From the NCBI GenBank assembly GCA_049589355.1, contig JBAWAP010000280.1, positions 32 to 64,031 of the forward strand: a stretch of DNA of 64,000 bases. Direction: 5' to 3'. The translations under genes were made by a program, and so were the position numbers. Each line of letters begins with the position of its first letter. Within the stretch, counting starts at the first letter, position 1. Positions 4,824 through 40,819 of the stretch are shown here, in pieces. Origin of the DNA: Anaerolineae bacterium. GTDB taxonomy: Bacteria > Chloroflexota > Anaerolineae > VGOG01. A model generated the notes under the pieces. That model searched no databases. It was not told the origin of the DNA and saw nothing but the letters and a program-made list of their open reading frames with translations.

Positions 4824-5495
4824 ATGGGATCAACGATCCAGCAACGCCTTCGTATCACCTTCGCCAAGGGCGAGGAAATAAAATACATCTCTCACCTGGA
4901 TCTGATACGGCTGTGGGAGAGGGCTTTGCGCCGGGCGCGGGTGCCGCTGGCTTACTCCCGTGGCTTCAACCCCCGGCCCCAAATAGCCTTCGCCGCTCCC
5001 CTGCCGGTGGGCTTCACCAGTCGGGGCGAGGTGATGGACGTCGTCCTGGAGCGCCGCATCTCTCCCTACAACTTCGCCAAGTCCTTGGTGCCCCACCTGC
5101 CGCCGGGCCTGGAGGTGCTGTCCGTGGAGGAGGCTTATCCAAAGTTGCCCTCCCTGCAGTCCCAGGTGCGCTCCGCGGAGTATCGGGTGACGGTGTCCTG
5201 GGATGGGTCACAGGAGGAGATGGAGGGGAAGCTGCAGGAGTTGCTTTCGGCCGAGGGACTGCTGCGCCAGCGCCGGGGTAAAGATTACGATCTGCGTCCG
5301 TTGATCGAGGATCTGTGGGTTGAGGGGGAAGAGGCTGATGGTTGGGTTTTAGGGATGCGCCTTCGGGCCGGGGACGAAGGCGCCGGCCGGCCCGACGAGG
5401 TGTTGGACGCCCTGGGCCTGGCCGAAGAGCCTCATGCTGTGCGAAGGGAGCGGCTCCTATTCGGCCCGGTGGCAAGTCAGGGGGCTAATACATAG
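4824..5495 (+). CDS. Radical SAM-linked protein (TIGR03936 / DUF2344)
   Basis: 223 aa; characteristic N-terminus (RLRITFAKGEEIKYISHLDLIRLWERALRRA..PLAYSRGFNPRP); usual partner of TIGR03960. Confidence 0.75.
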   Translation: MGSTIQQRLRITFAKGEEIKYISHLDLIRLWERALRRARVPLAYSRGFNPRPQIAFAAPLPVGFTSRGEVMDVVLERRISPYNFAKSLVPHLPPGLEVLSVEEAYPKLPSLQSQVRSAEYRVTVSWDGSQEEMEGKLQELLSAEGLLRQRRGKDYDLRPLIEDLWVEGEEADGWVLGMRLRAGDEGAGRPDEVLDALGLAEEPHAVRRERLLFGPVASQGANT

Positions 5496-5520
5496 GGCAA
5501 TCGCAAACTGCGCTAACGTG

Positions 5521-5705
5521 GTCATTGCGAGTCTTCCATGGCGCATCGCGCCATCCGTAGGGGGCAGAAACTGGCGGGCAGACTTCCGAAGTCTCCGAGA
5601 CTTCGGAAGTCTGGTCGCCCCCCGAGTTTCTGAGTAGCCGAAGGCGAAGCAATCTCCAACCTGGTGGGGGATTGCTTCGGCGCAAAAAGCGCGCCTCGCA
5701 ATGAC
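5521..5705. repeat. MITE-like palindromic element with termini GTCATTGCGAG..CTCGCAATGAC and internal GAAGCAATC/GATTGCTTC palindrome; carries an AGACTTCCGAAGTCT palindrome; flanked by outer IR AGGGCAATCGCAAA/TTTGCGATTGCCCT (5494-5752)
   Basis: Seen directly; related copies at 13181-13260, 22612-22843, 31641-31852. Confidence 0.8.
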
Positions 5706-6222: not shown

Positions 6223-6515
6223 GAATAGGGGATTAGACGATTGACGATTACCGATTGTCGAATGCCGATTGGAAACCAGGAATTGGGAATCGGCAATTGA
6301 AAATCGTCAATCGCCAATTGAATAGGGGATTAGACGATTGGTGATTACCGATTGTCGAATGCCGATTGGAGACCGAGAATTGGGAATCGGCAATTGAAAA
6401 TCGTCAATCGCCAATCGAATAGGGGATTAGACGATTGACGATTACCGATTGTCGAATGCCGATTGGAAACCGAGAATTGGGAATCGGCAATCGAAGATCG
6501 GCAATCGAAGATCGG
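6223..6515. repeat. Three tandem ~97-bp repeats (units start 6223, 6320, 6417) filling the rplU-rpmA intergenic region; rich in CGATTG/CAATCG sub-palindromes; 3' end degenerates into GCAATCGAAGATCG x2 and GAAATGG x2 just before the rpmA RBS
   Basis: Direct alignment of the three units (nearly identical). Confidence 0.9.
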
Positions 6516-6541
6516 AAATGGGAAATGGAGGTGTATTATTT

Positions 6542-6802
6542 ATGGCACACAAAAAGGGGGGCGGGAAGACCCACAACAGTCGAGATAGCCAGTCTAAGCG
6601 CCTGGGCGTGAAGAAGTTTGGCGGCCAGAAGGTGCGACCAGGAAACATCATCGTGCGCCAAAGAGGAACCAAATTCAAGCCCGGCAGCAACGTTGGTTTG
6701 GGCAAGGACTATACTATCTTCGCTATCATTGATGGCTTCGTGAAGTTCGAGCACGGACCACGGGGCAAGAAGATGGTTAGCGTGTATCCAGAAACTTCAT
6801 AG
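6542..6802 (+). CDS. rpmA: 50S ribosomal protein L27
   Basis: [31 protein letters not shown].. classic L27; ATG 6542 preferred over the longer ORF. Confidence 0.95.
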
Positions 6803-7364: not shown

Positions 7365-7973
7365 ATGTACCAGAGGCAAGGCGGTCCTTCGACAGGCTCA
7401 GGACGCGGTGGCTGGATCGAAGTGATCTGTGGTGGCATGTTCAGCGGCAAGACGGAGGAGTTGATTCGTCGTGTCAGGCGGGCCCAGATAGCCGGGCAGA
7501 AGGTGCAAGTTTTTAAGCCTCGCCTGGACGATCGCTATCTGGTCGAGAAGGTGGCTTCTCACGGTGGCATGCATCTGGATGCTGTCGTCGTGGGGGAGGC
7601 CAGGGATATCCCTCAGTTAGTGGACTCTGACACCACCGTGGTCGCCATAGACGAGGGGCAGTTCTTCGATTGGACTATCGCCGACGTTTGCAGCTTCCTG
7701 GCCGACAATGGTCGGCGAGTGATCATCGCTGGGCTGGATATGGACTTTCGCGGCGAGCCCTTTGGCCCTATGCCTCTGCTGATGGCCCAGGCCGAGATGG
7801 TGGACAAATTACAGGCCATCTGCGTCGTCTGCGGGATGCCGGCCAGCCGCAGCCAACGTCTGATCAACGGCCAGCCCGCTTCCTACGACGACCCCGTGAT
7901 AAGGGTAGGTGCTAGCGAAGTCTACGAAGCTCGCTGCCGCCATTGCCACCAAGTGCCGAAAAAAGATCAATGA
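7365..7973 (+). CDS. tdk: Thymidine kinase
   Basis: ..[19 protein letters not shown].. P-loop, C-terminal Zn-ribbon CxxC; strong RBS GGAGGAGG before ATG 7365. Confidence 0.9.
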
Positions 7974-8005: not shown

Positions 8006-8563
8006 TTGGAGGTTGGGATGTTAAACGATGACGTGGGTGAGATCCTCATCACTGAGGAGGAACTGCAGGCCAAGATTGCCGAGTTGGGTAAAGCCATCTC
8101 GGCTGACTATCAAGGCAAGGACCTTCTTGCGCTCTGCATCCTCAGGGGGGGGGTCGTTTTTTTGTCGGATCTTATCAGGCAGCTCACCGTCCCTCATGAG
8201 ATTGATTTTATGGCCGTCTCCAGCTACGGGGGCACCAGCACTGAGTCCAGTGGTGTCGTTCGCATTCTCATGGACCTCAGAACGAACATCGAAAGGCGCG
8301 ATGTGCTCATCGTGGAGGACATCGTAGACACCGGTTTGACTCTGAACTACATCATTGACAACCTCAAGACACGCCGGCCCGCCAGCCTGCGGGCCTGTGT
8401 CCTGTTGAATAAACACGAGCGCCGCAAGGTGCCCGTTCCCCTGGACTACGTAGGCTTCGATATCCCCGACAAGTTCGTAGTTGGCTACGGCCTGGACTAC
8501 GACGAGAAATACCGCAATCTCCCCTTCATCGGCGTGCTGAAGCCGGAGCTTTACAGCGAGTAA
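8006..8563 (+). CDS. hpt: Hypoxanthine-guanine phosphoribosyltransferase
   Basis: ..VLIVEDIVDTGLTL.. PRPP-binding motif; full-length HPRT similarity. Confidence 0.9.
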   Translation: MEVGMLNDDVGEILITEEELQAKIAELGKAISADYQGKDLLALCILRGGVVFLSDLIRQLTVPHEIDFMAVSSYGGTSTESSGVVRILMDLRTNIERRDVLIVEDIVDTGLTLNYIIDNLKTRRPASLRACVLLNKHERRKVPVPLDYVGFDIPDKFVVGYGLDYDEKYRNLPFIGVLKPELYSE

Positions 8564-8763
8564 AAAGTCAACGAGTGATGAGGCATTGCGGTAAAAGTGA
8601 CACGTCGTCGGTTGGTGGTCTAGGATATGTCATTCTGAGCGACCGAAGGGAGCGAAGAATCTCGTTTTGGGAGAACGAGAGTCCTTCGGTGGGCTCAAGG
8701 CAGGCTCTTCGTTTTTCTCATGGCTAGTCCCGAGCCTGACTAAGGAGTGGTAGGGGGAGAGCC

Positions 8764-9051
8764 ATGAAACAGTACTACGTCTACATTATGACCAATCACT
8801 CAGGGACACTCTATGTTGGCGTGACAAATGACCTCCGACGCCACGCCTGGGAGCACAAGCAGAAGTTGATTGAGGGATTCACCAAACGTTGCAACATCAC
8901 GAGGCTAGTCTACTACGAAGAAACTTCTGACGCAGCCGCTGCTATTGCTCGAGAGAAACAAATCAAGGGTTGGCTTCGCAAGAAGAAGATTGCGTTGATT
9001 GAGTCGCTTAACCCTGGTTGGAAAGACCTCAGTGAGGGTTGGTACGGCTAA
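8764..9051 (+). CDS. GIY-YIG nuclease superfamily protein (YhbQ-like)
   Basis: MKQYYVYIMTNHSGTLYVGVTNDLRRHAWEHK.. canonical GIY-YIG. Confidence 0.85.
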   Translation: MKQYYVYIMTNHSGTLYVGVTNDLRRHAWEHKQKLIEGFTKRCNITRLVYYEETSDAAAAIAREKQIKGWLRKKKIALIESLNPGWKDLSEGWYG

Positions 9052-9222
9052 GGAATTCTAGAGGTGAAGCGACGAGAAATCCCGTTCTTGGCAGACGGGT
9101 GATCTGTATGTGAGGAACGAGACCCTTCGCTTCCCCTTCGCTTTGCTCAGGGCAAGGCTCAGGGTGACAAATACAAGTGCGACTTTTTCCTCAATGCGTG
9201 ATGAGGCAACGAGGAAATAGAA

Positions 9223-28537: not shown

Positions 28538-31500
28538 ATGAGGACAATCTTCGACAGTTGTGAACCGCGATCCGAGGTTCTGAAAGGCGAGCTGCGAGAC
28601 GAAATCTTCGCGGCCCGGTTGAGAGATGTGATCATCGGCAAGGCCGATCCTGTCTATCAGGACCCTGTTATCTTCTTTGACAACACTTATCCCACCGAGG
28701 GCCTCAAGCTGCTGCTGGACGAAGGGCTGGGACGGCTGACTGGCCTCAAACCGGCCAGTAACGCCATCATCCGCCTAGAGACGGCCTTTGGCGGCGGCAA
28801 GACCCACAATCTAATCGCTCTCTACCATGCAACGATGGGCTATCGGCCCAGCGCCTCGCTGGTGGACACGGCACTCATTCCAATGCCGGGCTCCATCCAG
28901 GTGGTGGGCGTTGTTGGCTCGGACCTGCAGCCCTCGACGGGACTGGCTCACAACGGGTTCAGAACCTACACCCTCTGGGGTGAGATCGTTGCTCAGTTGA
29001 CCGATGACCAGGACCCCGCTCTGGTAGAACAAAGTGAGCGGGACAAGGTCGCCCCGGGCACCGGGCTGTGGGAGGAGTTGATCGGCGACGAACCCATGCT
29101 GATCATGCTGGACGAGATAGCCCGCCACCTGCGGGCAGCCAAGGCAGTGCCTACCACTACTGGCAAGTCGGACCTGGCTGAGCAGACGGTGGCCTTCCTC
29201 ATGTCCCTCTTCGAGTTCGCGGCCAGCAAGGAGCGAGTGGTGGTAGTCTACACCCTGGCCGATCCTCAAGATGCCTTCGGCAAGGAGACCGAGGAGCTGC
29301 GCCAGGAGCTGGCCGAAGCCAGGCGCGTCTCGGCGCGTCAGGAGCGTGTCATCACTCCTACAGGCGAGACCGAGATCTCGGCCATTGTCACCCACCGCCT
29401 GTTCCGACGCATAGATCACGCTGCTGGCCAGGCCACGGCTGCCGCCTACGCTGCCTACCTCAAGATGGCCCTGGATCAGAGCGCCGATCTACCCTCTCGG
29501 GCCGCCAGGGCCGAGTACGCCCAGGAGATGGTCAACGACTATCCCTTCCACCCCGAGCTACTGACTACCCTCAACCGCAAGACCTCGACCATTCCCAACT
29601 TTCAGAAGACCCGTGGCGCGCTGCGGCTGCTGGCCAGGGTGATCCGCCGCCTGTGGGAGAGGCGCCCGCCGGACGCTTACCTGATTCATCCCTATCACCT
29701 CGATCTGGCGGTGGAGGATATCGCTGGTGACTTGACCAGTCGCCTGGAGCGGCCGGCCTTTAAACAGGTGATCGAAGCGGACATCGTCAGTCCCAAGGCT
29801 GGCTCGCCAGCCCATGCCCAGTTGATTGACGTCTCCTGGCTGGAGGCCGGCAAACCGCCTTATGCTCGCCGCATCGCCACCACCGCCTTCTTGCACAGCC
29901 TGACCCAGGGCATCGCCACCGGAGTGGACCCGGCCGACCTGGCTCTGGCCGTGCTCCAGCCTGACGACGACCCCACCATGGTGGCCAAGGCTGCCGAGCG
30001 ACTGTACGACATCGGCTGGTTCTTCGAGTGGGATGGGCGCCGCTACCGCTTCAAGACCGAGCCGTCACTCAACAAGATTGTGACCGATGAGATGGGGTTG
30101 GTGGGACGTACCAAGGCCAAGGCTGAACTGGATGGGCGTATCCGTCAGGTGTGGAAAACGGGTTATTTCAAGCCGGCCTATTTCCCCAGCGAAGCCGGTG
30201 ACGTGGACGACGACGCCGACAAGCCCAAGTTGGTGGTCATCCACTACGACGCCGCCACCAGCAACGCTGGGGCAGCGGCTCCACCCGACCTGGTGCGCAA
30301 GATCTTCGACCACGCCGGGGCACTGCAGGGTTACCGTATCTATAAGAACAACGTCTTGTTCCTGGTGGCCGACGAAGACCAGGTGGAGAACATGGTGCAG
30401 GTAGCGCAGCGGTATCTGGCTATCGGGCGCATCACTGGCGACGCCGAGCGGATGGGGGAGTTCCACGAGGAGCAGCGCAAGAAGCTGAAGAAGATGGGCG
30501 AGGCCGCCGAGTTGGACGTGCGAGTGGCTATCACCAAAGCCTGTAAGTACCTCTACTATCCCAGTGCCGACGCCCCGCAGAAACACAGCAACCTGGCTCG
30601 CGAGACGCTACCCGCCCAGGATCAGGGTGAAGTCAACCAGGACCAGAGCAACGTGGTGCTGCGGGTGCTGAAGCAGTTGCAGAAGGTCCTGACAGCCGAC
30701 GATTCAACCCTGCCAGCCGCCTTTGTCAAGGCCAAAGCCTGGGATACGGGTCAGGCGAGCATGTCCACCGAGGATATGCGCCGTGCCTTCGCCCGCCGCA
30801 TGGGACTGCGCATCCTATTGGACCTGAACCAGCTCAAGAAGACCGTCCGCAACGGCATCAGCCAGGGCATCTGGGTCTACTACGACACGCCCGAACAGAT
30901 TGGCTACGGGCCGGAATCCCCAAGTCCCATGGTGCAGATCAGCGAGGATGTTCTCCTGTACACGCTGGAGGAAGCCAGACGGCTGGGGCTACGTATCAAA
31001 GGGGAGCGGGAAGAGGGCATTGGCCTTGAGGAGACTTGCCCTATCTGCCACCGGCCCGTCAGCCAGTGCATCTGTGGCCAGGCCTGTCCGGTGTGCGGGC
31101 AGGACCCGTGTGTCTGCGGAGTGAGGATCCGACTCCACGCCGATGGCGCGCCAGCCCAGGCTTTCCAGGGACTTCTCGATCAGTGTCACGACCAGGGTGT
31201 GACCAGCTTGGGCCGCCTCTTCGTGCGCATTGAGGGGAGGGACAGAGAGGGAGCGATGGAGGCCCGGGCCATGGGGCTGGCCATCCCCCAGTTGGGCAAG
31301 GGGCAATTCCGTGTAGAGCAGTCCTTCAACGCCGAGTTCGGCGAGGCCGAGTCACTGAGCCTGGTCTTTAACGGTGCTTGGGACCGCTACAAGCGGGTCA
31401 AGCAATTGACTGACGCCTTCGGCCACGAGGCCAGCAAGCTGTTGGCCAGGACCACTCTGCGGGCCGATTTCCCCGATGGCCTGGCCGTGGACTCAGACCA

Positions 31501-31588
31501 GTTCCAGACCATCCACGAGGTGTTCATCACGCTTGGCTTCGGGCACATGGTACTGGATGCGGAGCCGTGGATAGAAGAACACTCGTAG
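28538..31588 (+). CDS. DUF499-family P-loop ATPase (1016 aa), defence-island type
   Basis: N-terminus MRTIFDSCEPRSEVLKGELRDEIFAA.. and ..ETAFGGGKTHNL.. Walker A typical of DUF499; Cys-rich insert CPICHRPVSQCICGQACPVCGQDPCVCG near C-terminus. Confidence 0.7.
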   Translation: MRTIFDSCEPRSEVLKGELRDEIFAARLRDVIIGKADPVYQDPVIFFDNTYPTEGLKLLLDEGLGRLTGLKPASNAIIRLETAFGGGKTHNLIALYHATMGYRPSASLVDTALIPMPGSIQVVGVVGSDLQPSTGLAHNGFRTYTLWGEIVAQLTDDQDPALVEQSERDKVAPGTGLWEELIGDEPMLIMLDEIARHLRAAKAVPTTTGKSDLAEQTVAFLMSLFEFAASKERVVVVYTLADPQDAFGKETEELRQELAEARRVSARQERVITPTGETEISAIVTHRLFRRIDHAAGQATAAAYAAYLKMALDQSADLPSRAARAEYAQEMVNDYPFHPELLTTLNRKTSTIPNFQKTRGALRLLARVIRRLWERRPPDAYLIHPYHLDLAVEDIAGDLTSRLERPAFKQVIEADIVSPKAGSPAHAQLIDVSWLEAGKPPYARRIATTAFLHSLTQGIATGVDPADLALAVLQPDDDPTMVAKAAERLYDIGWFFEWDGRRYRFKTEPSLNKIVTDEMGLVGRTKAKAELDGRIRQVWKTGYFKPAYFPSEAGDVDDDADKPKLVVIHYDAATSNAGAAAPPDLVRKIFDHAGALQGYRIYKNNVLFLVADEDQVENMVQVAQRYLAIGRITGDAERMGEFHEEQRKKLKKMGEAAELDVRVAITKACKYLYYPSADAPQKHSNLARETLPAQDQGEVNQDQSNVVLRVLKQLQKVLTADDSTLPAAFVKAKAWDTGQASMSTEDMRRAFARRMGLRILLDLNQLKKTVRNGISQGIWVYYDTPEQIGYGPESPSPMVQISEDVLLYTLEEARRLGLRIKGEREEGIGLEETCPICHRPVSQCICGQACPVCGQDPCVCGVRIRLHADGAPAQAFQGLLDQCHDQGVTSLGRLFVRIEGRDREGAMEARAMGLAIPQLGKGQFRVEQSFNAEFGEAESLSLVFNGAWDRYKRVKQLTDAFGHEASKLLARTTLRADFPDGLAVDSDQFQTIHEVFITLGFGHMVLDAEPWIEEHS

Positions 31589-31640
31589 TAACGACTTTAG
31601 CTCGACATTGTTAAATTCGCTGTCGTAGCCAACAAAGGAT

Positions 31641-31852
31641 GTCATTGCGAGTCTTCCATGGCGCGGTGCGCCATCCGTAGGGGGCAGAAACTTGGGCGAG
31701 GTTCGTAGTAACAGCTTTAGCTGTCGTTTGGCAGCAAAGGCGACTAAAGTCGTCTACGAACCAAGTTTCTGAGTAGCGCAGCGAAGCAATCTCCCGCCTT
31801 CAAATGCAAGCAACGGTGGAGATTGCTTCGTCGCTGCGCTCCTCGCAATGAC
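31641..31852. repeat. GTCATTGCGAG-type MITE copy carrying an internal GTTCGTAGTAACAGCTTTAGC/GACTAAAGTCGTCTACGAAC palindrome; surrounded by further GTAGTAACGACTTTAGTC-type repeats (31592, 31893, 31935)
   Basis: Seen directly. Confidence 0.8.
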
Positions 31853-31968
31853 ACTTGGCCTGGAATCTAACAATGTCAAGTTAGTCGTTAATTGTGAACG
31901 ACTGAAGTCGTTACTACGGCGTTGCTACAACTTGTAGTAATGACTTTAGTCGTTCAAGGAGACCAAAT

Positions 31969-32898
31969 GTGAAGGCGCTTTCCATCCGCCAACCCTGGGC
32001 TGAGTTGATCCTCCAGGGACGCAAGACTATCGAACTGCGCACCTGGCCGACGAGCTACCGCGGCCGCATCGCCATCCATGCCAGCCAGACAGTTCGAGAG
32101 GAGGCTTGCATTGCCTATGGTCTGGATCCGGCCAGAATGGTGCGCGGCGCGCTGGTGGGCACGGTGGAACTGGTGGACGTTTTGCCGCTGGACGAGGCGG
32201 CATGGGAGGCTCTGCGCGATCAGCACCTGTCGTTGAGTGACTTCCCCGGCCCGATGTTCGGCTGGCGGCTGGAGGCCCCCCAACGCCTGCCCCAGCCGAT
32301 CCCCATGCGCGGCCGCATGAGCCTGTTTAATGTGGCCGATGAGGTGATAGCGGGAAAAGCACCACATTCCCCCCTCTCCCAGGGTTGGGAGAGGGGGCTA
32401 GGGGGTGAGGGCTTTGCGCCGCCCAAGGTGACCTATAACACGCGGGCCGATGCGCCGGCCTACGACCCTGAAAAACCCTTCGAGCTGTGGGTGGTTCCCT
32501 GCGATGGCGGCGACTATGGCCTGGCGTTGTATCAGTGGCCCGTGGCGGCCAATCGTGAGATCCCAAAGCCCCAGCGACTGGTGGAGCTGGCTGGCGATTC
32601 GCTGCGGGCTGTGGCCGACCACGTGCTGGAAGCGTTGCGCAAGAGTGACTATAAGGTGACCGACCTGTCTCACAACCGCCAAAAGCCCTTCCGCCTGGAC
32701 GAAGAGACGGGCTTGCGCCTGGGCCTGCTCTTTCTGGCTGTCAAACCATTGACCCGCATGGATCGCGTCGAGGCCATCTCTAGCGGCTTACGCACCATGC
32801 CGTCCGAGGAAGCCTACTATTGGTTCAGCAAGTGCACCGCTGAGGCGAGCGCTGTCAATGCCCAGCGGGCGCTGCGAATTTTGTTGGCTGGAGAGTGA
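31969..32898 (+). CDS. ASCH (PUA-like) domain protein with ~190-aa uncharacterized C-terminal region
   Basis: ..LSIRQPWAELILQGRKTIELRTW.. ASCH signature; GTG start with AAGGAGA RBS. Confidence 0.7.
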   Translation: MKALSIRQPWAELILQGRKTIELRTWPTSYRGRIAIHASQTVREEACIAYGLDPARMVRGALVGTVELVDVLPLDEAAWEALRDQHLSLSDFPGPMFGWRLEAPQRLPQPIPMRGRMSLFNVADEVIAGKAPHSPLSQGWERGLGGEGFAPPKVTYNTRADAPAYDPEKPFELWVVPCDGGDYGLALYQWPVAANREIPKPQRLVELAGDSLRAVADHVLEALRKSDYKVTDLSHNRQKPFRLDEETGLRLGLLFLAVKPLTRMDRVEAISSGLRTMPSEEAYYWFSKCTAEASAVNAQRALRILLAGE

Positions 32899-32969
32899 AG
32901 TGAAGGGAATGACCTGTCCGCTCCCCTGGAGTGTGAGTAGTGAAGTGTTGTTAAATTAAGGAGGATGAT

Positions 32970-33221
32970 ATGTCTGAGCTTTATTCTGTAACCGGCACCC
33001 TGTCGGATGAGCAAACAGTCATACTGGACAGACCTATTCCTCTGCCCATTGGTCGCGTGCGCTTGACCGTTGAAACGTTGCCCGCTGCCAAGCCTGATAG
33101 AACATTCCTCAGCAAGCTGCAGGCAATTCGCCAGGCTCTGCGCGCTAGCGGCTATCGCCCCTGCACCAGAGAAGAAATTGATGCGCAGACTACGCGCCCG
33201 CTATCGCTTCAGAACCCCTGA
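32970..33221 (+). CDS. Hypothetical small protein (83 aa)
   Basis: ORF with RBS GGAGGA; no family recognised. Confidence 0.4.
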   Translation: MSELYSVTGTLSDEQTVILDRPIPLPIGRVRLTVETLPAAKPDRTFLSKLQAIRQALRASGYRPCTREEIDAQTTRPLSLQNP

Positions 33222-33235
33222 CGCAGGAGGCGCAG

Positions 33236-36200
33236 ATGAACCCACCCCCCACCCTCATCGAATCCTGGCTGCCCTTCGAAGCCATTGGCGCGGAGAGCCA
33301 GCGCGAGCGGGGCGCCAGCAGCGCCTTGCCGCCGCTGTACTTCTTGCACGTCTGGTGGGCGCGCCGCCCGCTGACGGTGAGCCGTGCCGCAGTGCTGGCT
33401 GGCCTCTTGCCAGACTTCCGAAGTCTTGGAGACTTCGGAAGTCTCGACCTGCGCCAGAAGTTCCCTACCGAAGAGGCGTACCGCGCCTGGTTCACCCGCC
33501 TGCTGGGCATCCTGGGTGACCCGGTGACTGGCCGCAAGCTGCTTGCGCGTGCCCGTCAGGTCGGAAAGAAGATCCCCAACCCCTACGAGCACGGCCGGGC
33601 GTTCACGTACAATCCCCCGGCTGAGGAACTGGAAACAATGCTCGACCTGCTGGAGCAGGCATGGGGCACCCGCGAGATCACGGTCATGGATCCCATGGCC
33701 GGCGGAGGCTCCATCCCCTTCGAAGCCCTACGCTATGGCTTCACCGTGCTGGCTGGCGAATTGAACCCGGTCGCCGCGGTTATCCTCAAAGCCACCCTGG
33801 ACTACCCGGCTCGCTTCGGCCCGGCCCTGGCCGACGACATCCGCAGGTGGGGCAAGCGTTGGTACGAGTTGGTCAAACCCAGGCTGGAACCCTACTTCAC
33901 GCCGTTGCCACCAGGGGCTGAAGGCGCTGCCTACCTATGGGCGCGCACCGTCGCCTGCCCGACGACCGGCAAGCTGGTGCCTCTTTCCCCCAACTGGTGG
34001 CTGAGCAAGGGCAGCGACCTCGTGGCTGTGCGCCTGCTCACCAACCCCGCCTGGGACGAGCCACGCTTCGAGATCGTGCGCGGCTCTCCCCTCTCCCTGC
34101 CAGGGAGAGGGGCCGGGGGTGAGGGTTGGACCTTCGACCCCGACGAGGGCACAGTTAGCCGAGGGGTGGGACGCTCTCCCTGGACGGGCGAAGCCATTGA
34201 CGGCGACTACATCAAACGAGAGGCTCAGGCCGGCCGCATGGGGCAGATGCTGTACGCCGTGGCGGTGAAGAAGCCTGGTGGTTTCGACTTCCGCCCACAC
34301 ACAGAGGAGGACCTGGCCGCCGTCCGTCGCGCCGAGGCCGCCTTGGCCGAGAACCTGCCCCGCTGGGAGGCGGCCGGGTTGGTGCCGCGAGAGCCGTTCC
34401 CCGGCGGCAACGACCCCCGCCCACTGCTCTACGGCATGCCCACCTGGGCCGACTTCTTCTCTCCCCGCCAACTCCTCTCCCTGGTCACCTTCCTGGGGGC
34501 GCTGCGGGAGGTGGGTGCGGAGATGCGGCGGGAGATGGATGAGGAGCGGGCCGAGGCGGTGGAGACGTATTTGGCCTTTGCGCTGAACAAATGCCCAAAC
34601 TATAGCTCACGAATGTCGGTATGGCATCCGCTGCGTACCTCAATGGCAAATACCTTCAACCGCCATGACTTTAGCTTTGCTTGGAGTCATGGCGAGTTTG
34701 ATGCTGCTCACAACTTGCTACCCTGGGCTGTCAGCCAGATAGAGGATGCCTACAAAGGCCTGGCCATACTGACTGTTTCTGCCCAGATCCCTCTGTGGGG
34801 CAGTGATGGCGGCTCGCCCGTCGAGCGACTGCAAATCTGGCAGGGCTCAGCCACTGACCTCAGCCAAGTTGAGAGCTGCTCCGTCCACCACATCTGCGTG
34901 GACCCGCCCTACTATGACAACGTCATGTACGCTGAGCTCAGCGACTTCTTCTACGTCTGGCTCAAACGCAGTGTGGGCCACCTGTACCCCGAATTCTTCC
35001 GCGATACTTTGACCAATAAGGACGACGAAGCAGTGGCCAACCCCGCCCGCTTCAAGGCCCTCGCTTCCCCCTCTCCCGCTTCCCCCCTAAGGTTGGGGGG
35101 GACCGTGGGGGGGCGGAGAGGGGGGCAGGGGGTGAGGGACCTGGCCAAACGGGACTACGAACGCAAGATGGCCGCTTGCTTCCGCGAGATGCACCGCACC
35201 TTGCGCGACGACGGCGTGTTGACCGTCATGTTCACCCACAAGCAGGTGGAGGCCTGGGATACCCTGGCCACCGCGCTCATCGGCGCCGGCTTCACCATCA
35301 AAGCCTCCTGGCCTGTCCACACCGAGTCCGAGCACTCCCTGCACCAGGCCCAGAAGAACGCCGCTGCCAGTACCATCCTGCTGGTCTGCCGCAAACGAGC
35401 AGACAAGGAGACAAGGGGACAAGGAGACAGAGAGACAATCTCCGTGTCTCCCCCTCACCTTGTCTCCCCCTCTCAAGTGTGGTGGGATGACATCAAGGGC
35501 CGGGTGCGGCAGGTGGCACGGGAGAAGGCGGCTGAGTTCGCTGAACAGGGTGTCAGCGGGGTGGACCTGTACATCAGCACCTTCGGCCCTGTCCTGTCTG
35601 TCATCTCCGAGCGCTGGCCGGTGCTGACCAGCGAGGTGGATGAAAAGACAGGCCAGCCTAAGCCCCTACGCCCCGAAACCGCCCTTGACCTGGCCCGCGA
35701 GGAGGTCATCGCCCTGCGCAAGCGAGGACTGCTGCTGGGACGGGATATCCAGTTCGACCCCGTCACCGACTGGTACCTGATGGCCTGGGATGCCTTCAAA
35801 GCCGAGGAGTTCCCCGCCGACGAGGCGCGCAAGCTGGCCATCGCCCTGGGGTTGGACATCGAGGAGGACCTGGTGCGGCGCAAGCGGGTCATCGGCAAGA
35901 AGGGCAGCTTTGTGGTGCTGCAACAGCCCAAACACCGCCGCCGCAAGCACCTGGCCGACCCTGAGGCTGTGGTCTTCGACACCCTCCTGGACGCCGCCCA
36001 CGCCGCCATGCTCATCTACCACGAAGATGGGCCACTGGCCTGTGAAAGCTTCCTCAAGCGCACTGGCCTGCTGACCGACAGCACCTTCAAGGCCTGCCTC
36101 CAGGCCCTGCTCAACGCCATCCCCCGCACCCAGATCAAGGGCAGATTCGTCCGCCCCGAAGCCGACCTCCTGGAGCGTCTGCGAATGGCCTTCTTTGAGG

Positions 36201-36265
36201 ATTTGGAGGTGCCGGTGGAGGAGGAGGCGGGGGCGGTCATACAACAGCTAGGGTTGGACATCTAG
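33236..36265 (+). CDS. DUF1156-family adenine-specific DNA methyltransferase-like protein (1009 aa)
   Basis: N-terminus ..LIESWLPFEAIGAESQRER..LHVWWARRPL.. (DUF1156 hallmark); DPPY motif (..HHICVDPPYYDNVMY..) at ~34901. Confidence 0.75.
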   Translation: MNPPPTLIESWLPFEAIGAESQRERGASSALPPLYFLHVWWARRPLTVSRAAVLAGLLPDFRSLGDFGSLDLRQKFPTEEAYRAWFTRLLGILGDPVTGRKLLARARQVGKKIPNPYEHGRAFTYNPPAEELETMLDLLEQAWGTREITVMDPMAGGGSIPFEALRYGFTVLAGELNPVAAVILKATLDYPARFGPALADDIRRWGKRWYELVKPRLEPYFTPLPPGAEGAAYLWARTVACPTTGKLVPLSPNWWLSKGSDLVAVRLLTNPAWDEPRFEIVRGSPLSLPGRGAGGEGWTFDPDEGTVSRGVGRSPWTGEAIDGDYIKREAQAGRMGQMLYAVAVKKPGGFDFRPHTEEDLAAVRRAEAALAENLPRWEAAGLVPREPFPGGNDPRPLLYGMPTWADFFSPRQLLSLVTFLGALREVGAEMRREMDEERAEAVETYLAFALNKCPNYSSRMSVWHPLRTSMANTFNRHDFSFAWSHGEFDAAHNLLPWAVSQIEDAYKGLAILTVSAQIPLWGSDGGSPVERLQIWQGSATDLSQVESCSVHHICVDPPYYDNVMYAELSDFFYVWLKRSVGHLYPEFFRDTLTNKDDEAVANPARFKALASPSPASPLRLGGTVGGRRGGQGVRDLAKRDYERKMAACFREMHRTLRDDGVLTVMFTHKQVEAWDTLATALIGAGFTIKASWPVHTESEHSLHQAQKNAAASTILLVCRKRADKETRGQGDRETISVSPPHLVSPSQVWWDDIKGRVRQVAREKAAEFAEQGVSGVDLYISTFGPVLSVISERWPVLTSEVDEKTGQPKPLRPETALDLAREEVIALRKRGLLLGRDIQFDPVTDWYLMAWDAFKAEEFPADEARKLAIALGLDIEEDLVRRKRVIGKKGSFVVLQQPKHRRRKHLADPEAVVFDTLLDAAHAAMLIYHEDGPLACESFLKRTGLLTDSTFKACLQALLNAIPRTQIKGRFVRPEADLLERLRMAFFEDLEVPVEEEAGAVIQQLGLDI

Positions 36266-36292
36266 ATCGAACCGAGAAAGGAGTTCACACTG

Positions 36293-36667
36293 ATGACAGA
36301 GCATAAGGTGTTGATACCGGACCAGATGTTTGCTGAATTGATGCCGATATCGGAGCAGGAAGACAAAGAAATCAGCGATCTGGTTATAGAAGCATTGCAG
36401 CGGTATCTTTGGGAGGCCAAAGAACGCAAGATTGACCGGGAAATGGAGGCGTACCGTATGATGCACGCCGAACTGAAAGGACGTTTCCTAGGCGAGTACG
36501 TAGCTATTCACAATGGCGAGTTGGTGGATCACGACACTGATCGCCGTGCCCTGTCTCGACGGGTGCGACGAGAATACGGGAACACGGTAGTGCTCATCAC
36601 CCCCGTCGAGGATGAGCCAGAACGGGAGTTCTTGATGCTGAGTCCTCGATTTGAACGAGGTGTATGA
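36293..36667 (+). CDS. Small protein, DUF5678-like C-terminal domain (124 aa)
   Basis: ..YVAIHNGELVDHDTDRRALSRRVRREYGNTVVLI..; overlaps next gene by 4 bp. Confidence 0.45.
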   Translation: MTEHKVLIPDQMFAELMPISEQEDKEISDLVIEALQRYLWEAKERKIDREMEAYRMMHAELKGRFLGEYVAIHNGELVDHDTDRRALSRRVRREYGNTVVLITPVEDEPEREFLMLSPRFERGV

Positions 36668-37050
36668 TGCGATATCCTTACGACAGTCGTTACCATCCTC
36701 CGATGCCGGTTGTTGAGGTTGCTTTAGGCGTATCAGAGGGCGATTTCCCGTTGGAGCCGCTTCCTAGCATCATAGATACCGGCGCAGACATCACGATCGT
36801 GCCCAGGGAATACCTAATGCGCCTGGATGCACCGGTTGTTGCCAGTGGGTATCTGCGCAGCCCGTGGGGAGGCCGATCCAGTGTCAAGATATACGAAGTC
36901 AACGTGCGTGTCGGGGAACATGACCTGTATGGTGTTGAAGTTGCGGGTGAACCAGGCGGGCGCGAAGTGTTGTTGGGACGTAACTTGTTGAACCAGTTGG
37001 ATCTACGACTGGATGGGCCGAATGAGACCGTGGTTGTATTGTCAGGTTAG
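36664..37050 (+). CDS. Retropepsin-like (clan AA) aspartic protease, 128 aa
   Basis: ..SIIDTGADITIVP.. D-T/S-G-A active-site motif. Confidence 0.65.
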   Translation: MMRYPYDSRYHPPMPVVEVALGVSEGDFPLEPLPSIIDTGADITIVPREYLMRLDAPVVASGYLRSPWGGRSSVKIYEVNVRVGEHDLYGVEVAGEPGGREVLLGRNLLNQLDLRLDGPNETVVVLSG

Positions 37051-37078: not shown

Positions 37079-40000
37079 ATGAGACTTCGCGATCATGACT
37101 TCCAGATTTCTTATGGCCCGGCCGATGACCGGCTCCACGACTTCTACATTCCGGCCCTGTCGTGCAGTCTGCGCTACGACCGCACGGCTGGCTTCTTTAG
37201 TAGCAGTGCCTTGGCCGTGGCGGCCGCTGGCGTGGCCCGGCTCATCGCCCAGGGCGGTACCATGCGCCTGCTGGTCGGTGCCCAACTGAGCGAAGCCGAC
37301 GTCCGTGCCATCGAGCGAGGACAGGCGTTGGACGAGGTCGTGGCCGAGCGACTGATCGCAGCCCTCAGCGAGCCCGAGGAAGAAGTCATGCAGCGCCGCC
37401 TGGAGGTGCTGGCCTGGATGGTCGCCGCAGGCAGGCTCCAAATCCGCGTCGTGCTCCCAAAAGGACCCGATGGTCACCCCCTTCCTGCATCCGAGGCCCA
37501 GGACTACTATCACCCCAAAGAGGGCCTCTTCACCGACCACTACGGCGACCAAATTGCCTTCAGCGGCAGCATTAACGAATCGGCCATTGGTTGGCAGCGC
37601 AATTATGAGCAGTTCTCCGTCTACTTCTCGTGGAACGCCACGGCTCCATACCTGGCCCAGGTGCGCTATCGGTTCGAGCATCTGTGGAATGGGCAGGAGC
37701 CGGACTGGATTGCGATGGACGTTCCCGAAGCGGCGCGGCAGCAGTTGCTTCGCTATCGCCCGGCCACGGCTCCTACCTGCGACCCGCTGGAGCGCGAACC
37801 GAAACCCAAGGTGGTCGAGCGTCCGGGCGTTTTCGTGCCTGAATTGCAGCATGAGCGTGTCCTCTTCCAGTTCCTGCGCGATGCTCCCCGTCTCCTCAAC
37901 GCCCGATGGCTGGGCGCGGCAACCAGCGCTGTCACTCCGTGGCCCCACCAGGCGCGCATTGCCGATACCATCGTCACCCGTTTCCCGGAGCGCTTCCTGC
38001 TTTGCGACGAGGTCGGCCTCGGAAAAACCATCGAGGCTGGCCTGGTGCTGCGTCAGCTCCTCTTGTCGGGCTACGTTCGCCGTTGCCTGATCCTGGCCCC
38101 TAAATCCGTCTGCCGCCAATGGCAGGAGGAACTCTACGAGAAGTTCGCCCTCAACGTCCCCTTCTTCGATGGCCACACCTTCCGTGACGTGTTCGGCCAG
38201 GAGCATACGCCGGACGTTCCTAACCCCTGGGACGCCGAGGACGTATTCATCGCCTCCAGCCAACTGGCTAAACGGCGCGAGCGCCAGCCGGATCTGTTGG
38301 CAGCTCGCCCGTGGGATCTGATCATCGTGGACGAGGCGCACCACGCCCGTCGCAAGGACTTTCTGGTTCCCCGCTACCGGCCCAACCGTCTGCTGGAGTT
38401 GCTGATGGGACAGGATGAACAGCCCGGGCTGAAAGATCGCACACTGAGCTTGCTCTTGATGACTGCTACTCCCATGCAGATCCATCCGGTGGAAGTGTGG
38501 GACCTGTTGCGGGTCCTCGGCCTGGGCGGTCGTTGGGGTGCTGACGATAGCAACTTCCTGCGCTTCTTCCAGGAGCTGCGTCGGCCTTTCGACGACGCGG
38601 ATTGGGATTTCGTCTTCGGCATGGTGCGCGATTTCCTGGATACGGGCGGGGAACTCGATCCGACATTTGCCAGTCAGGCCGAGGCCAAACTTGGCCTGGT
38701 GGATTGGCAGCGGTTCAAGATGCTGATATCACCTCAGGAACACGAAGCCAGACCCAAGCAGTTGTTGGCTAAGAATCGTGCCCTGGTGATAGAAATGACC
38801 CGCCGGCATACTCCACTGCGCCGGTATCTCTTTCGCAGCACCCGCCGCCTGCTCCGGGAGTACGTGCAGCGGGGCATTCTCAAGGCCAACGTGCCCCATC
38901 GGGACCCTGAGCCAGTCTGGATTGCGATGCGTGCTGACGAGCAGGATCTCTACCACCGGATCGAGGAGTACATCACCCATTTCTACCGAAAGTATGAGGC
39001 GGAGCGCAAGGGGTTGGGCTTCATTATGACCGTTTACCGGCGCCGGTTGACCAGCAGCTTCTATGCGGTGCGCCGCAGCCTGGAGCGGCGATTGGACTTC
39101 TTACGTGGCCAGACTGCCCCTGGCACGATAGCAGGCTTTGATGAAGACGACCTGGAGCAGGAAGACCTGACCCAGGACATCAGCGAGGAACTGGAAGCAG
39201 AGGAAAGGTCCCGCTTCCGTGGCGAGATCGAATACGTTGAGGATTTCCTGGCCGCGCTGCGCAGCTTGAGTGGCAACGATTCCAAGGTCGAGCAGTTGTT
39301 GGCTGACCTGGAGGAAATCTTCAAACGGCGCGAGACGGTCCTCATTTTCACCCACTACACCGACACGATGGACTTCCTACGCGAACAACTGCGGCAGGCA
39401 TACGGCAGCCAGGTGGCTTGCTATAGCGGACGGGGGGGCGAGGTGTGGAACGGCATCGCCTGGGTGCCGACGACCAAGGAGGAAATCAAGAACGCTTTTC
39501 GCCAAGGCGAGGCGATCAAGATTCTCCTTGGCACCGAGGCGGCCAGCGAGGGGTTGAACCTGCAAACCTGTGGTGTGTTGATCAACTACGACATGCCCTG
39601 GAACCCCATGCGGGTCGAGCAACGGATCGGCCGCATTGACCGCATCGGCCAGATGCACAAAAGGGTCTGGATTCGCCACTATTTCTACGAGGACACGGTG
39701 GAGGCCAGGGTCTACCGAGCGTTGGAGGATCGGATCGGTTGGTTTGAAGAAGTCGTCGGTGAGTTGCAGCCGATCCTTGCTCGAATAGGACAAGCCATCC
39801 AGAGCGCGGCCATGACGCCAGTGGCCGAGCGGGAGCAGGTGTTGACGCGAGAGTTGGAACAGCTACGGGAAGGGGCAGACACCCGACAGGCCGAGGGCCT
39901 TGACTTGGAGCAGTACCTGATCGCTGATGAGCCGTTGCTGGAGTCCACTTCTCCCGTCACCCTGAGCGACCTGGAGCGGGTGCTCACGCGGACATCGTCC

Positions 40001-40819
40001 CTGGTGGATCGTTTCCAACCGCATCCAAAATTCAAGCGGGCCTACTGGCTACGAACCGATGAGGGTGGCGCGGCTGTGACCTTCGACGTGGCCTTGTTTG
40101 ATGCCCACCCCAACACCTTGCGGTTGCTCACGTACGGAAGTGAGCTGCTGACGGCCCTGCTGAAGGCTGTGTCGGAGCCGGCTTCTGGCCCTGAGGGGCG
40201 TGTGCTACGCTGTTGGACGGAAGGCCCCCTGCCTCTTTGCGGCTACTACACCCTTGGCGCCAAGGGTCGCCCGCAGCGGATTGAGCGCCTGGCGGACCTC
40301 GAAGTACTCTATGCTGCGGACCCACATGCGCATTGGTCGGAAGAAGCCATAGCAACAGCGCGCGCCGACTTTCGGCGAGAGGTGGAGACACTGGTGCAGC
40401 GACGGGCGCAGGTGATCGCAGGCCGGCGGCGAGCAGAGCGTCTGGCGCTGGAGGAGCAAGCGCGCCAGACGCTGCTCCAGGCAGCGCTGGTAGAGCTGGC
40501 CATGGGGCAGCAACTCCAACTGTTCGCGGAAGAAGCACTGCCTGTGGCCTTCACCGAGGAAGCGATCACCGGCCTCAAGCGCCATGGTTATCCCTTTGCA
40601 CCATTGCTCAGGCTAGTCAATGTGGATGGCTTGCGGCCCAGCCCCACCGACCCGTTTTACACCGCGGTGCAGGGTAAATCACGAGAAGCCCTCAGGGGCC
40701 ACTTCAACGCGCTGCGGGACGAAGCAGTCCGGCTCTTGGGCCTGCTGGCAAGTGCTCCGGATCAGGAGGAGTCCTCCCAGGACATACAGGATGTCGTTGT
40801 GCAGACATTAGTAGTTTGA
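37079..40819 (+). CDS. PLD-like nuclease domain fused to SNF2-family helicase (1246 aa) with ~370-aa uncharacterized C-terminal region
   Basis: N-terminal HxK(x4)D (..HPKEGLFTD..), ATPase motif I ..LCDEVGLGKTIEAG.., motif II ..IIVDEAHHARR.., helicase-C ..LNLQTCGVLINYDMPWNP..QRIGRIDRIGQ.. Confidence 0.8.
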   Translation: MRLRDHDFQISYGPADDRLHDFYIPALSCSLRYDRTAGFFSSSALAVAAAGVARLIAQGGTMRLLVGAQLSEADVRAIERGQALDEVVAERLIAALSEPEEEVMQRRLEVLAWMVAAGRLQIRVVLPKGPDGHPLPASEAQDYYHPKEGLFTDHYGDQIAFSGSINESAIGWQRNYEQFSVYFSWNATAPYLAQVRYRFEHLWNGQEPDWIAMDVPEAARQQLLRYRPATAPTCDPLEREPKPKVVERPGVFVPELQHERVLFQFLRDAPRLLNARWLGAATSAVTPWPHQARIADTIVTRFPERFLLCDEVGLGKTIEAGLVLRQLLLSGYVRRCLILAPKSVCRQWQEELYEKFALNVPFFDGHTFRDVFGQEHTPDVPNPWDAEDVFIASSQLAKRRERQPDLLAARPWDLIIVDEAHHARRKDFLVPRYRPNRLLELLMGQDEQPGLKDRTLSLLLMTATPMQIHPVEVWDLLRVLGLGGRWGADDSNFLRFFQELRRPFDDADWDFVFGMVRDFLDTGGELDPTFASQAEAKLGLVDWQRFKMLISPQEHEARPKQLLAKNRALVIEMTRRHTPLRRYLFRSTRRLLREYVQRGILKANVPHRDPEPVWIAMRADEQDLYHRIEEYITHFYRKYEAERKGLGFIMTVYRRRLTSSFYAVRRSLERRLDFLRGQTAPGTIAGFDEDDLEQEDLTQDISEELEAEERSRFRGEIEYVEDFLAALRSLSGNDSKVEQLLADLEEIFKRRETVLIFTHYTDTMDFLREQLRQAYGSQVACYSGRGGEVWNGIAWVPTTKEEIKNAFRQGEAIKILLGTEAASEGLNLQTCGVLINYDMPWNPMRVEQRIGRIDRIGQMHKRVWIRHYFYEDTVEARVYRALEDRIGWFEEVVGELQPILARIGQAIQSAAMTPVAEREQVLTRELEQLREGADTRQAEGLDLEQYLIADEPLLESTSPVTLSDLERVLTRTSSLVDRFQPHPKFKRAYWLRTDEGGAAVTFDVALFDAHPNTLRLLTYGSELLTALLKAVSEPASGPEGRVLRCWTEGPLPLCGYYTLGAKGRPQRIERLADLEVLYAADPHAHWSEEAIATARADFRREVETLVQRRAQVIAGRRRAERLALEEQARQTLLQAALVELAMGQQLQLFAEEALPVAFTEEAITGLKRHGYPFAPLLRLVNVDGLRPSPTDPFYTAVQGKSREALRGHFNALRDEAVRLLGLLASAPDQEESSQDIQDVVVQTLVV

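Follow-up and report, generated by a model that had tools for sequence, protein, structure and literature searches.

A co-inherited DUF5678/retropepsin gene pair of Chloroflexota as a candidate toxin-antitoxin-like module

The DNA analysed here, a stretch of 64,000 nt from a contig of an Anaerolineae bacterium (JBAWAP010000280.1; hereafter the window), carries two small overlapping genes, ORF-A and ORF-B, which separate the methylase gene from the helicase gene in a defence locus. ORF-A encodes a protein (A) with a ribbon-helix-helix (RHH)-like head and a DUF5678 domain, and ORF-B encodes a retropepsin-fold aspartic protease (B). These two genes make up a genuine module that is inherited as one and is a horizontally mobile cassette in Chloroflexota, and we favour, with moderate confidence, the reading that it is a self-contained type II toxin-antitoxin (TA)-like module in which the retropepsin would be the toxin. 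An earlier note, made from the letters of the window alone, had placed the overlapping open reading frames (ORFs) and their ATGA overlap exactly where we find them, and its interpretation is taken up below together with the results that bear on it. Coordinates without a locus prefix are window positions, and the pair lies on the + strand. The features of the pair are as follows.

36277..36283, + strand: Shine-Dalgarno sequence AAAGGAG, 9 nt upstream of the ORF-A start, read from the sequence
36293..36667, + strand: ORF-A, 124 aa; RHH-like head, long helix, DUF5678 domain and conserved tail
36293..36427, + strand: A residues 1-45, RHH-like head; extended N-terminal segment, helix 10-23 and the start of helix 27-65
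36470..36604, + strand: A residues 60-104, DUF5678 (beta-beta-alpha-beta; Pfam PF18929)
36605..36664, + strand: A residues 105-124, C-terminal tail VEDEPEREFLMLSPRFERGV, predicted to be disordered yet conserved
36664..36667, + strand: ATGA stop/start overlap, read from the sequence; the same 4-nt or a 1-nt overlap occurs in most related loci
36664..37050, + strand: ORF-B, 128 aa (127 aa from the second ATG, 36667); retropepsin-fold aspartic protease
36775..36789, + strand: catalytic motif D38-T39-G40-A41-D42 (DTGAD), from an alignment of 22 B homologues (alignment A1) and from diverse homologues
36970..36984, + strand: L103-L-G-R-N107 (LLGRN), counterpart of the G-R-D/N motif of retroviral proteases

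Conserved pairing, co-divergence and asymmetric decay of the two genes

When one genome per species in the GTDB collection was searched with the B alignment, 31 loci were recovered, all of them from Chloroflexota (Anaerolineae, Caldilineae and Promineifilaceae). In 29 of the 31, B was immediately preceded by an A-family ORF, in most cases with an overlap of the ATGA type, and the remaining two loci were cut by contig ends. All full-length B genes that could be assessed were preceded by A (26/26), at B identities down to 30%, so that the two genes are kept as a unit rather than being random neighbours elsewhere, an outcome that the earlier note had allowed for. One metagenome-assembled genome (MAG) carried two copies of the pair (L010 and L023). 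In look-ups anchored on A, B was found downstream in 6 of 9 distinct places. The pairwise identities of A and of B over 23 loci were strongly correlated (r = 0.86; Mantel test, 0 of 2000 permutations), which indicates that A and B have diverged in step, and dN/dS values against five homologues were 0.08-0.15 for A and 0.11-0.16 for B, indicating purifying selection on both. With dozens of homologues of each gene, purifying selection, and adjacency in every assessable related locus, a chance arrangement of ORFs is outdone by far.

The decay of the pair was asymmetric. An intact A gene was found next to a B gene truncated to 66-68 aa in L042-44 and L134, next to a frameshifted B gene in L036, and in L133 B had been replaced downstream of an intact A. 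Cases of A without an intact B came from at least four lineages, and no intact B occurred without A (0/26). Together with the constant pairing, this asymmetric loss supports the view, already put forward in the earlier note, that the genes form a tightly coupled TA-like or regulator-effector module. At locus L017 the RHH head of A was degenerate while its DUF5678 domain, its tail and the B gene were intact, which suggests that what B requires of A is its C-terminal half. The segment that replaces B in L133 (5445-6247) encodes a helical 127-aa protein unrelated to B, whose gene overlaps that of a 140-aa HNH nuclease, and it may be another TA-like pair in the same spot.

The protease, its partner and their junction

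The assignment of B as a clan-AA protease is borne out by profile, motif and structure comparisons. Its match to Pfam RVP scored 23.6 against a gathering score of 20.7, and the matches to gag-asp_proteas (27.9 against 28.2) and Asp_protease_2 (21.1 against 24.3) both fell just below cut-off; membership of the NCBIfam family TIGR03698 (clan_AA_DTGF) was rejected, at 24.4 against a cut-off of 57.35. B contains IIDTGADITIVP. Within alignment A1, T39, G40 and D42 were invariant and the catalytic D38 and A41 nearly so (at least 90%), with G in place of D38 in P0020, and LLGRN, aligned to IIGRNLL of HIV-1 protease (PR), was also nearly invariant. Both D[TS]G[AS] and a G-R-N/D-type motif were present in 27 of 27 diverse B proteins taken from the loci, and the spacing from DTG to LLGRN was 64-66 residues (65 in 24 of the 27). 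A structural check of the D-T/S-G fold, as suggested in the earlier note, gave an AlphaFold2 (AF2) model with a pLDDT of 89 and a pTM of 0.82, for which a Foldseek search of the PDB returned the XMRV, HIV-1, FIV and EIAV proteases, APRc and Ddi1 as top matches at a probability of 1.00. The best overall structural match was Rickettsia APRc (5c9f; TM-score 0.74), the root-mean-square deviation from HIV-1 PR was 2.1 A over 99 residues, and sequence identities to the PDB matches were 13-24%. The lack of such a fold, which the earlier note had named as a refutation, is thus not what the model shows, and on motif, profile and fold B belongs to the retropepsin-like clan, with its active site intact. 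On reading the B sequence, without a predictor, neither a signal peptide nor a transmembrane segment was apparent. Two further proteins, P0041 (149 aa) and P0048, are chimeras that join the first 80 residues of the protease, DTGAD among them, to a C-terminal DUF433 (PF04255) part, and they indicate recombination between small TA-like genes.

The domain calls made for A in the earlier note, an RHH-like N-terminus followed by DUF5678, also hold. The PF18929 match of A (aa 60-104) scored 24.7 bits against a gathering score of 23.2, and most A homologues carry a precomputed PF18929 assignment. The window protein taken alone gave a weak RHH signal (NCBIfam ORF56, E = 0.03, sub-threshold) and no Pfam RHH match. 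When a 38-sequence profile of the A family was compared with the PDB, the best matches were the CopG RHH protein 9kkd (E = 0.015), the EndoAI antitoxin 4me7 (E = 0.075) and CopG 7by2 (E = 0.088), and in the A relatives P0173 and P0193 an RHH_1 domain scored above the gathering score. The AF2 model of A (pLDDT 82) comprises helix 10-23, a long helix 27-65, a DUF5678 unit at 69-104 and a disordered tail at 105-124, with pLDDT values of 87-93 over the DUF5678 stretch and below 50 at residues 117-124. A Foldseek search of the PDB with this model gave no significant match and no solved structure resembling the DUF5678 part; its best match covered 37 residues, the RHH part of VapB (5x3t_E), at a probability of 0.57. 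To our knowledge, DUF5678 has no known function and no member of the family has been studied.

Conservation within A was evaluated over 253 family members. The near-invariant residues of DUF5678 are A71, G75, D79, D81, D83, L87 and R90. The tail is conserved as well (V105 98%, P109 83%, R116 64%, S117 70%, P118 87%, R119 73%, L/F120 70%), with alternating hydrophobic residues at 113 and 115, and follows the family motif V-x3-P-x3-h-x-h-R-S-P-R-[LF]. From this pattern we propose that the tail may be a protease-binding element.

A profile search of 1.84 billion representatives (50% identity clusters) returned 3,637 matches to the A family at E <= 1e-3 and 1,454 clusters at E <= 1e-10, and most of the proteins were full-length, with 120-125 aa. 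The statement in the earlier note that free-standing retropepsin-like proteases are rare in bacteria is therefore overstated; they are little studied, yet the partner family alone amounts to this number of clusters. The heads that precede DUF5678 in A relatives include VapB_antitoxin and RHH_1 above the gathering score, and PhdYeFM and RelB-like heads at sub-threshold scores. Among the best 150 A-family representatives there were no natural A-B fusion proteins, and the long members were tandem DUF5678 duplications or carried extra antitoxin-type heads. Three proteins (P0173, P0234 and P0267) have two tandem repeats of DUF5678 plus tail in one polypeptide, an arrangement that would fit a single antitoxin chain contacting both subunits of a protease dimer.

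At the junction of the two genes, GTATGATGCG, the first ATG of B shares 4 nt (ATGA) with the TGA stop of A, an overlap that implies translational coupling of A and B. The second ATG (36667) is the start in most B homologues (127 aa), giving a 1-nt TGATG overlap, and GAGG precedes the ORF-B start. The methylase stop codon (36263-36265) is separated from the ORF-A start by 27 nt, and the end of ORF-B from the helicase start by 28 nt. No sigma-70-like promoter was found on the + strand between 35900 and 37300, nor was an operator or terminator of the pair's own found on that strand of the window, and the window pair is probably transcribed by read-through from the upstream operon. Two loci in which A has its own upstream intergenic region carry a TATAAT-like -10 box followed by a palindromic element, namely a short palindrome, AGATCTgAGATCT, in L025 (~7530-7560) and a 12-nt inverted repeat, AAGGCCAGTGCG/CGCGCTGGCCTT, in L033 (~7520-7560). 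These palindromes are candidate operators for the RHH head.

Genomic contexts of the pair and the Hma locus of the window

The pair was found in more than 10 unrelated contexts, often adjoining classical TA genes. In different loci it adjoins a type III restriction-modification system, sits within an Hdr/FlpD metabolic operon that also holds HicAB, lies next to a ParE module in a stretch of aconitase and isopropylmalate-dehydrogenase genes, occupies a BREX/AbiE island or an nSTAND/SIR2 island, lies near TIR and PIN genes, or is placed in housekeeping surroundings between thiamine-pyrophosphokinase and DinG-like genes. The cassette measures ~760 bp, no conserved cargo or regulon adjoins it, and its neighbours differ in every lineage. 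In the window, the GC content at third codon positions (GC3) is 0.57 for the pair, 0.81 for the methylase and 0.74 for the helicase. A search for a target-site duplication or inverted repeats flanking the window pair gave only short repeats at chance level, and a CTAGA-like hexamer at both borders of the pair was likewise judged to be chance.

The window neighbours of the pair form an Hma (DUF499/DUF1156/SNF2) system, a type recently renamed the DUF499-centred BREX-related (BR) system (PMC12839542). Its genes are listed below.

28538-31588: DUF499 ATPase, Hma neighbour
31969-32898: ASCH + DUF7680 protein, 309 aa, between the DUF499 ATPase and the DUF1156 methylase
33236..36265, + strand: DUF1156 N6-methyltransferase, HmaB-like, 1009 aa; Pfam DUF1156, PADLOC HmaB 2.8e-74
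37079..40819, + strand: SNF2 helicase, 1246 aa; PbeA/PLD_Helicase-like N-terminus in PADLOC, with BrxH, DrmD and HmaA matches

The earlier note had taken the position of the pair between methylase and helicase as a sign of an accessory or abortive-infection role, and had proposed that its conservation next to DUF1156/SNF2 genes be checked. We compared 80 metagenomic loci, those whose helicase N-termini are closest to that of the window (58-91% identity; loci L051-L130), and neither A nor B was present in any of them (0/80). In ~30 of these loci the methylase stop and the helicase start were 19-165 nt apart, corresponding to an empty site, and in ~29 a gap of 250-3,900 nt held genes unrelated to the pair. 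The inserts comprised a HicA toxin, an NYN-domain protein with a small partner, a 1,237-aa KAP/nSTAND NTPase, an SMC/AAA_15/AAA_21 ATPase, NERD plus a UvrD-like helicase, IS200-like genes, a C39-like peptidase, a DUF1294 protein and several unknowns. In Halomonas, a hotspot for the insertion of defence genes has been described between hmaA and hmaBC (PMC11232893), where other genomes have Septu, AAA_21 ATPases and similar cargo; the loci compared here vary in the same manner. The window pair occupies the same helicase-methylase junction, and as far as the published cargo could be read no DUF5678/retropepsin pair is part of it. The junction is a generic cargo hotspot, and since it is a generic cargo slot, a position inside this defence operon is not evidence of membership in it.

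Screening from the side of the pair gave the same picture. Among the 50 pair loci fetched first (L001-L050, several of them redundant; L131-L135 were left out), Hma genes were found near the pair only in L007, an Anaerolineae MAG of the same lineage as the window (JBGVTF010000412.1), and there as remnants. This locus has an intact pair at the same junction while the Hma genes have decayed to a frameshifted methylase fragment and codons for helicase aa 2-265 only, at 8422-9219. A segment of ~110-130 nt from the 3' end of the DUF1156 methylase gene occurs twice in L007, directly before A and directly after B (5378-5652 and 6459-6592). The relic after B indicates that the pair was inserted at the junction secondarily, and the duplication looks like the footprint of a cassette insertion. 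Homology of ~50 nt to the 3' coding end of the methylase (window ~36085-36135) also lies upstream of A in L001 (~5540-5585) and in L008 (~205-255), where the context is a type III restriction-modification system, indicating that this lineage left the Hma locus and carried flanking DNA along. The window pair is a passenger in a cargo slot and not an Hma component, and the accessory role read from its position does not stand.

Two side observations concern the Hma loci themselves. GC dips flank the ASCH + DUF7680 gene at ~31600-32000 and ~32800-33200, and its product may be a subtype-specific fourth component of the Hma/BR system. Among the unknown junction ORFs, those of L104/L114 (160 and 147 aa), L106 (two paralogous proteins of ~160 aa) and L116 (414 and 249 aa) may be new defence or TA candidates.

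A type II-like toxin-antitoxin reading and its alternatives

We favour the TA reading because the genes are small (two genes of ~125 aa), overlapping and co-directional with the DNA-binding partner first, and because of the mobility of the pair, its TA and defence neighbours, the exchanged heads of A, its conserved disordered tail, and the asymmetric decay. A DNA-binding head joined to a disordered C-terminal tail is the usual architecture of type II antitoxins. Under this reading, B would be a cytosolic retropepsin-type aspartic protease that acts as effector or toxin, presumably as a homodimer to which each subunit contributes one D-T-G. The RHH-like head of A would dimerise, bind DNA and autoregulate the operon, while DUF5678 and the conserved disordered tail would bind B and hold it inactive, either with the tail in the substrate cleft, in the manner of a pseudo-substrate or a slowly cleaved substrate, or with the tail blocking the terminal beta-strand dimer interface of B. 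The stop/start overlap would couple the translation of the two genes. Depletion of A, whether by phage- or stress-induced shut-off of host expression or by turnover of the disordered tail, would then free B to cleave cellular or phage proteins, leading to growth arrest. HIV-1 PR and other retroviral proteases are toxic when expressed in E. coli, which makes a free retropepsin a plausible toxin.

The pair shares several properties with type II TA systems that have RHH antitoxins (ParD/ParE, RelB/RelE, RHH-type VapB/VapC and EndoAI(MazE)/EndoA). These include small genes that overlap, with that of the antitoxin in the lead; an RHH-like head with a disordered C-terminal partner-binding region, a binding role that in A is putative; mobility, patchiness, residence in defence islands and swapped heads; and the occurrence of orphan antitoxins, with the toxin never alone. 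It differs from them in that the putative toxin is a retropepsin-fold aspartic protease and not an RNase, gyrase poison, kinase or acetyltransferase, and in that the putative partner-binding part of A is DUF5678 and the pair has no PADLOC match.

Other small prokaryotic retropepsins offer a second comparison. The characterised bacterial examples, Rickettsia APRc (PMC4140852; 5c9f), Pseudomonas RimB (PMC11957791) and secreted enzymes of P. aeruginosa (PMC12239564), have the same single-domain retropepsin fold of ~100-130 aa with D-T/S-G and G-R-D/N motifs. To judge from the titles and descriptions of these reports, the enzymes are membrane-associated, secreted or encoded in the rimABK ribosome-modification operon, unlike B, and none is described there as paired with an RHH-DUF5678 gene, whereas B travels as a two-gene cassette. 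Small retropepsin-domain proteins of ~100 aa, such as Saci_1895, have been reported in association with specific CRISPR subtypes, in type III CRISPR-Cas loci of Sulfolobales (PMC3973734). Compared with B by description only, they are likewise free-standing mini-retropepsins in a prokaryotic defence locus, but they are archaeal and no DUF5678 partner has been reported for them.

Several points weigh against the TA reading. The statistic for the decay asymmetry (Fisher p = 0.013, comparing 26/0 in the B-anchored with 6/3 in the A-anchored sample) comes from small, non-randomly chosen samples. The RHH assignment of the window A protein itself is below threshold, and some of the long A-family architectures may reflect gene calls that run separate genes together. 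Since neither a promoter nor an operator belonging to the pair is recognisable in the window copy, this copy offers no argument for autoregulation. The defence and TA models of PADLOC returned 0 families for A and B, no TA family was among the Pfam/NCBIfam matches of the window proteins, and our literature search, which speaks for the papers it covered, found no description of a DUF5678/retropepsin pair or of such a TA family; the pair fits no described TA or defence family. On plasmids, phages and viral contigs, where many TA families abound, the pair was not found in a tblastn search of PLSDB with A and B, a tblastn search of INPHARED with B or a pattern scan of IMG/VR that used the B alignment.

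The main rival is a proteolytic switch like those of ImmR/ImmA or Xre/COG2856, in which A would be a repressor, B a dedicated anti-repressor protease that cleaves A upon a signal, perhaps at its tail, and the output de-repression of genes and not toxicity. A TA-like or switch role has been suggested for pairs of the Xre/COG2856 type, and ImmA and ImmR control mobile elements. As in the Xre/ImmR-COG2856/ImmA/IrrE arrangement, a small DNA-binding gene lies immediately upstream of, and here overlaps, a small protease gene, although this is analogy and not homology: the proteins there are a HEXXH zinc metalloprotease and a helix-turn-helix (HTH) regulator, whereas our free-standing pair combines an aspartic protease with an RHH-like protein. 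Membership of the pair in that family was accordingly rejected. A switch would also be consistent with the conserved disordered tail of A, whose alternating hydrophobic residues and proline could mark a cleavage site, and with the persistence of A genes without B, as might be expected of a repressor. However, the cassette travels alone with neighbours that change from lineage to lineage, and switches of the ImmR/ImmA type normally reside in phages and mobile elements, while the pair was not found in the phages or other mobile elements searched. The absence of any intact B without A is predicted for a toxin that needs neutralisation and is not required of an anti-repressor. A switch thus shares most features of the pair and leaves the missing regulon and the fact that B is never alone unexplained, and we regard it as unlikely, with a minor share of the probability.

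We give a somewhat smaller chance to a non-toxic processing or quality-control pair, in which B would mature or degrade a client, possibly A, with A as adaptor, chaperone or substrate, and with no role in addiction or defence. Physiological, non-toxin roles of RimB (PMC11957791), the secreted P. aeruginosa enzymes (PMC12239564) and APRc (PMC4140852), as far as the titles and descriptions of those reports go, would agree with this, as would the retention of a single chromosomal site among housekeeping genes in some lineages (L045, L131). The patchy distribution over many contexts, the co-location with TA and defence genes and the antitoxin-type domain swapping among A relatives argue against it, and the decay asymmetry is unexpected for a housekeeping function. 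That the pair is a dedicated accessory, sensor or abortive-infection arm of the Hma system is highly improbable and was rejected on distribution, since the short spacers to methylase and helicase, the missing promoter and probable co-transcription, the shared junction in L007 and the past linkage recorded by the methylase relics of L001 and L008 are set against the empty or otherwise filled junctions of its closest relatives, the absence of Hma genes from almost all other pair loci screened, a GC3 that differs from that of the Hma genes, the decay of these genes around an intact pair in L007, and the published record of the junction as an insertion hotspot (PMC11232893).

Taken as a whole, the earlier interpretation keeps its domain calls and its coupled TA-like module (26/26 pairing) and loses the Hma accessory role (0/80 Hma loci) and the claim of rarity. 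The pair represents a large, unstudied family with a new candidate toxin chemistry and a function that is putative throughout. It is relevant, too, to the evolution of the prokaryotic retropepsin pool, the presumed source of retroelement proteases. More tentatively than the TA reading itself, we suggest that the pair could be the founding example of a large undescribed TA or abortive-infection family, in which the conserved, pseudo-substrate-like tail of an RHH-DUF5678 antitoxin would restrain a retropepsin toxin directed against self or phages. If the TA reading is true, aspartic proteolysis by a retropepsin fold would be a new effector chemistry for TA and abortive-infection systems, DUF5678 would gain its first function, and A would represent a natural protein of minimal size that inhibits or regulates a retropepsin, with a bearing on how such dimeric proteases can be controlled.

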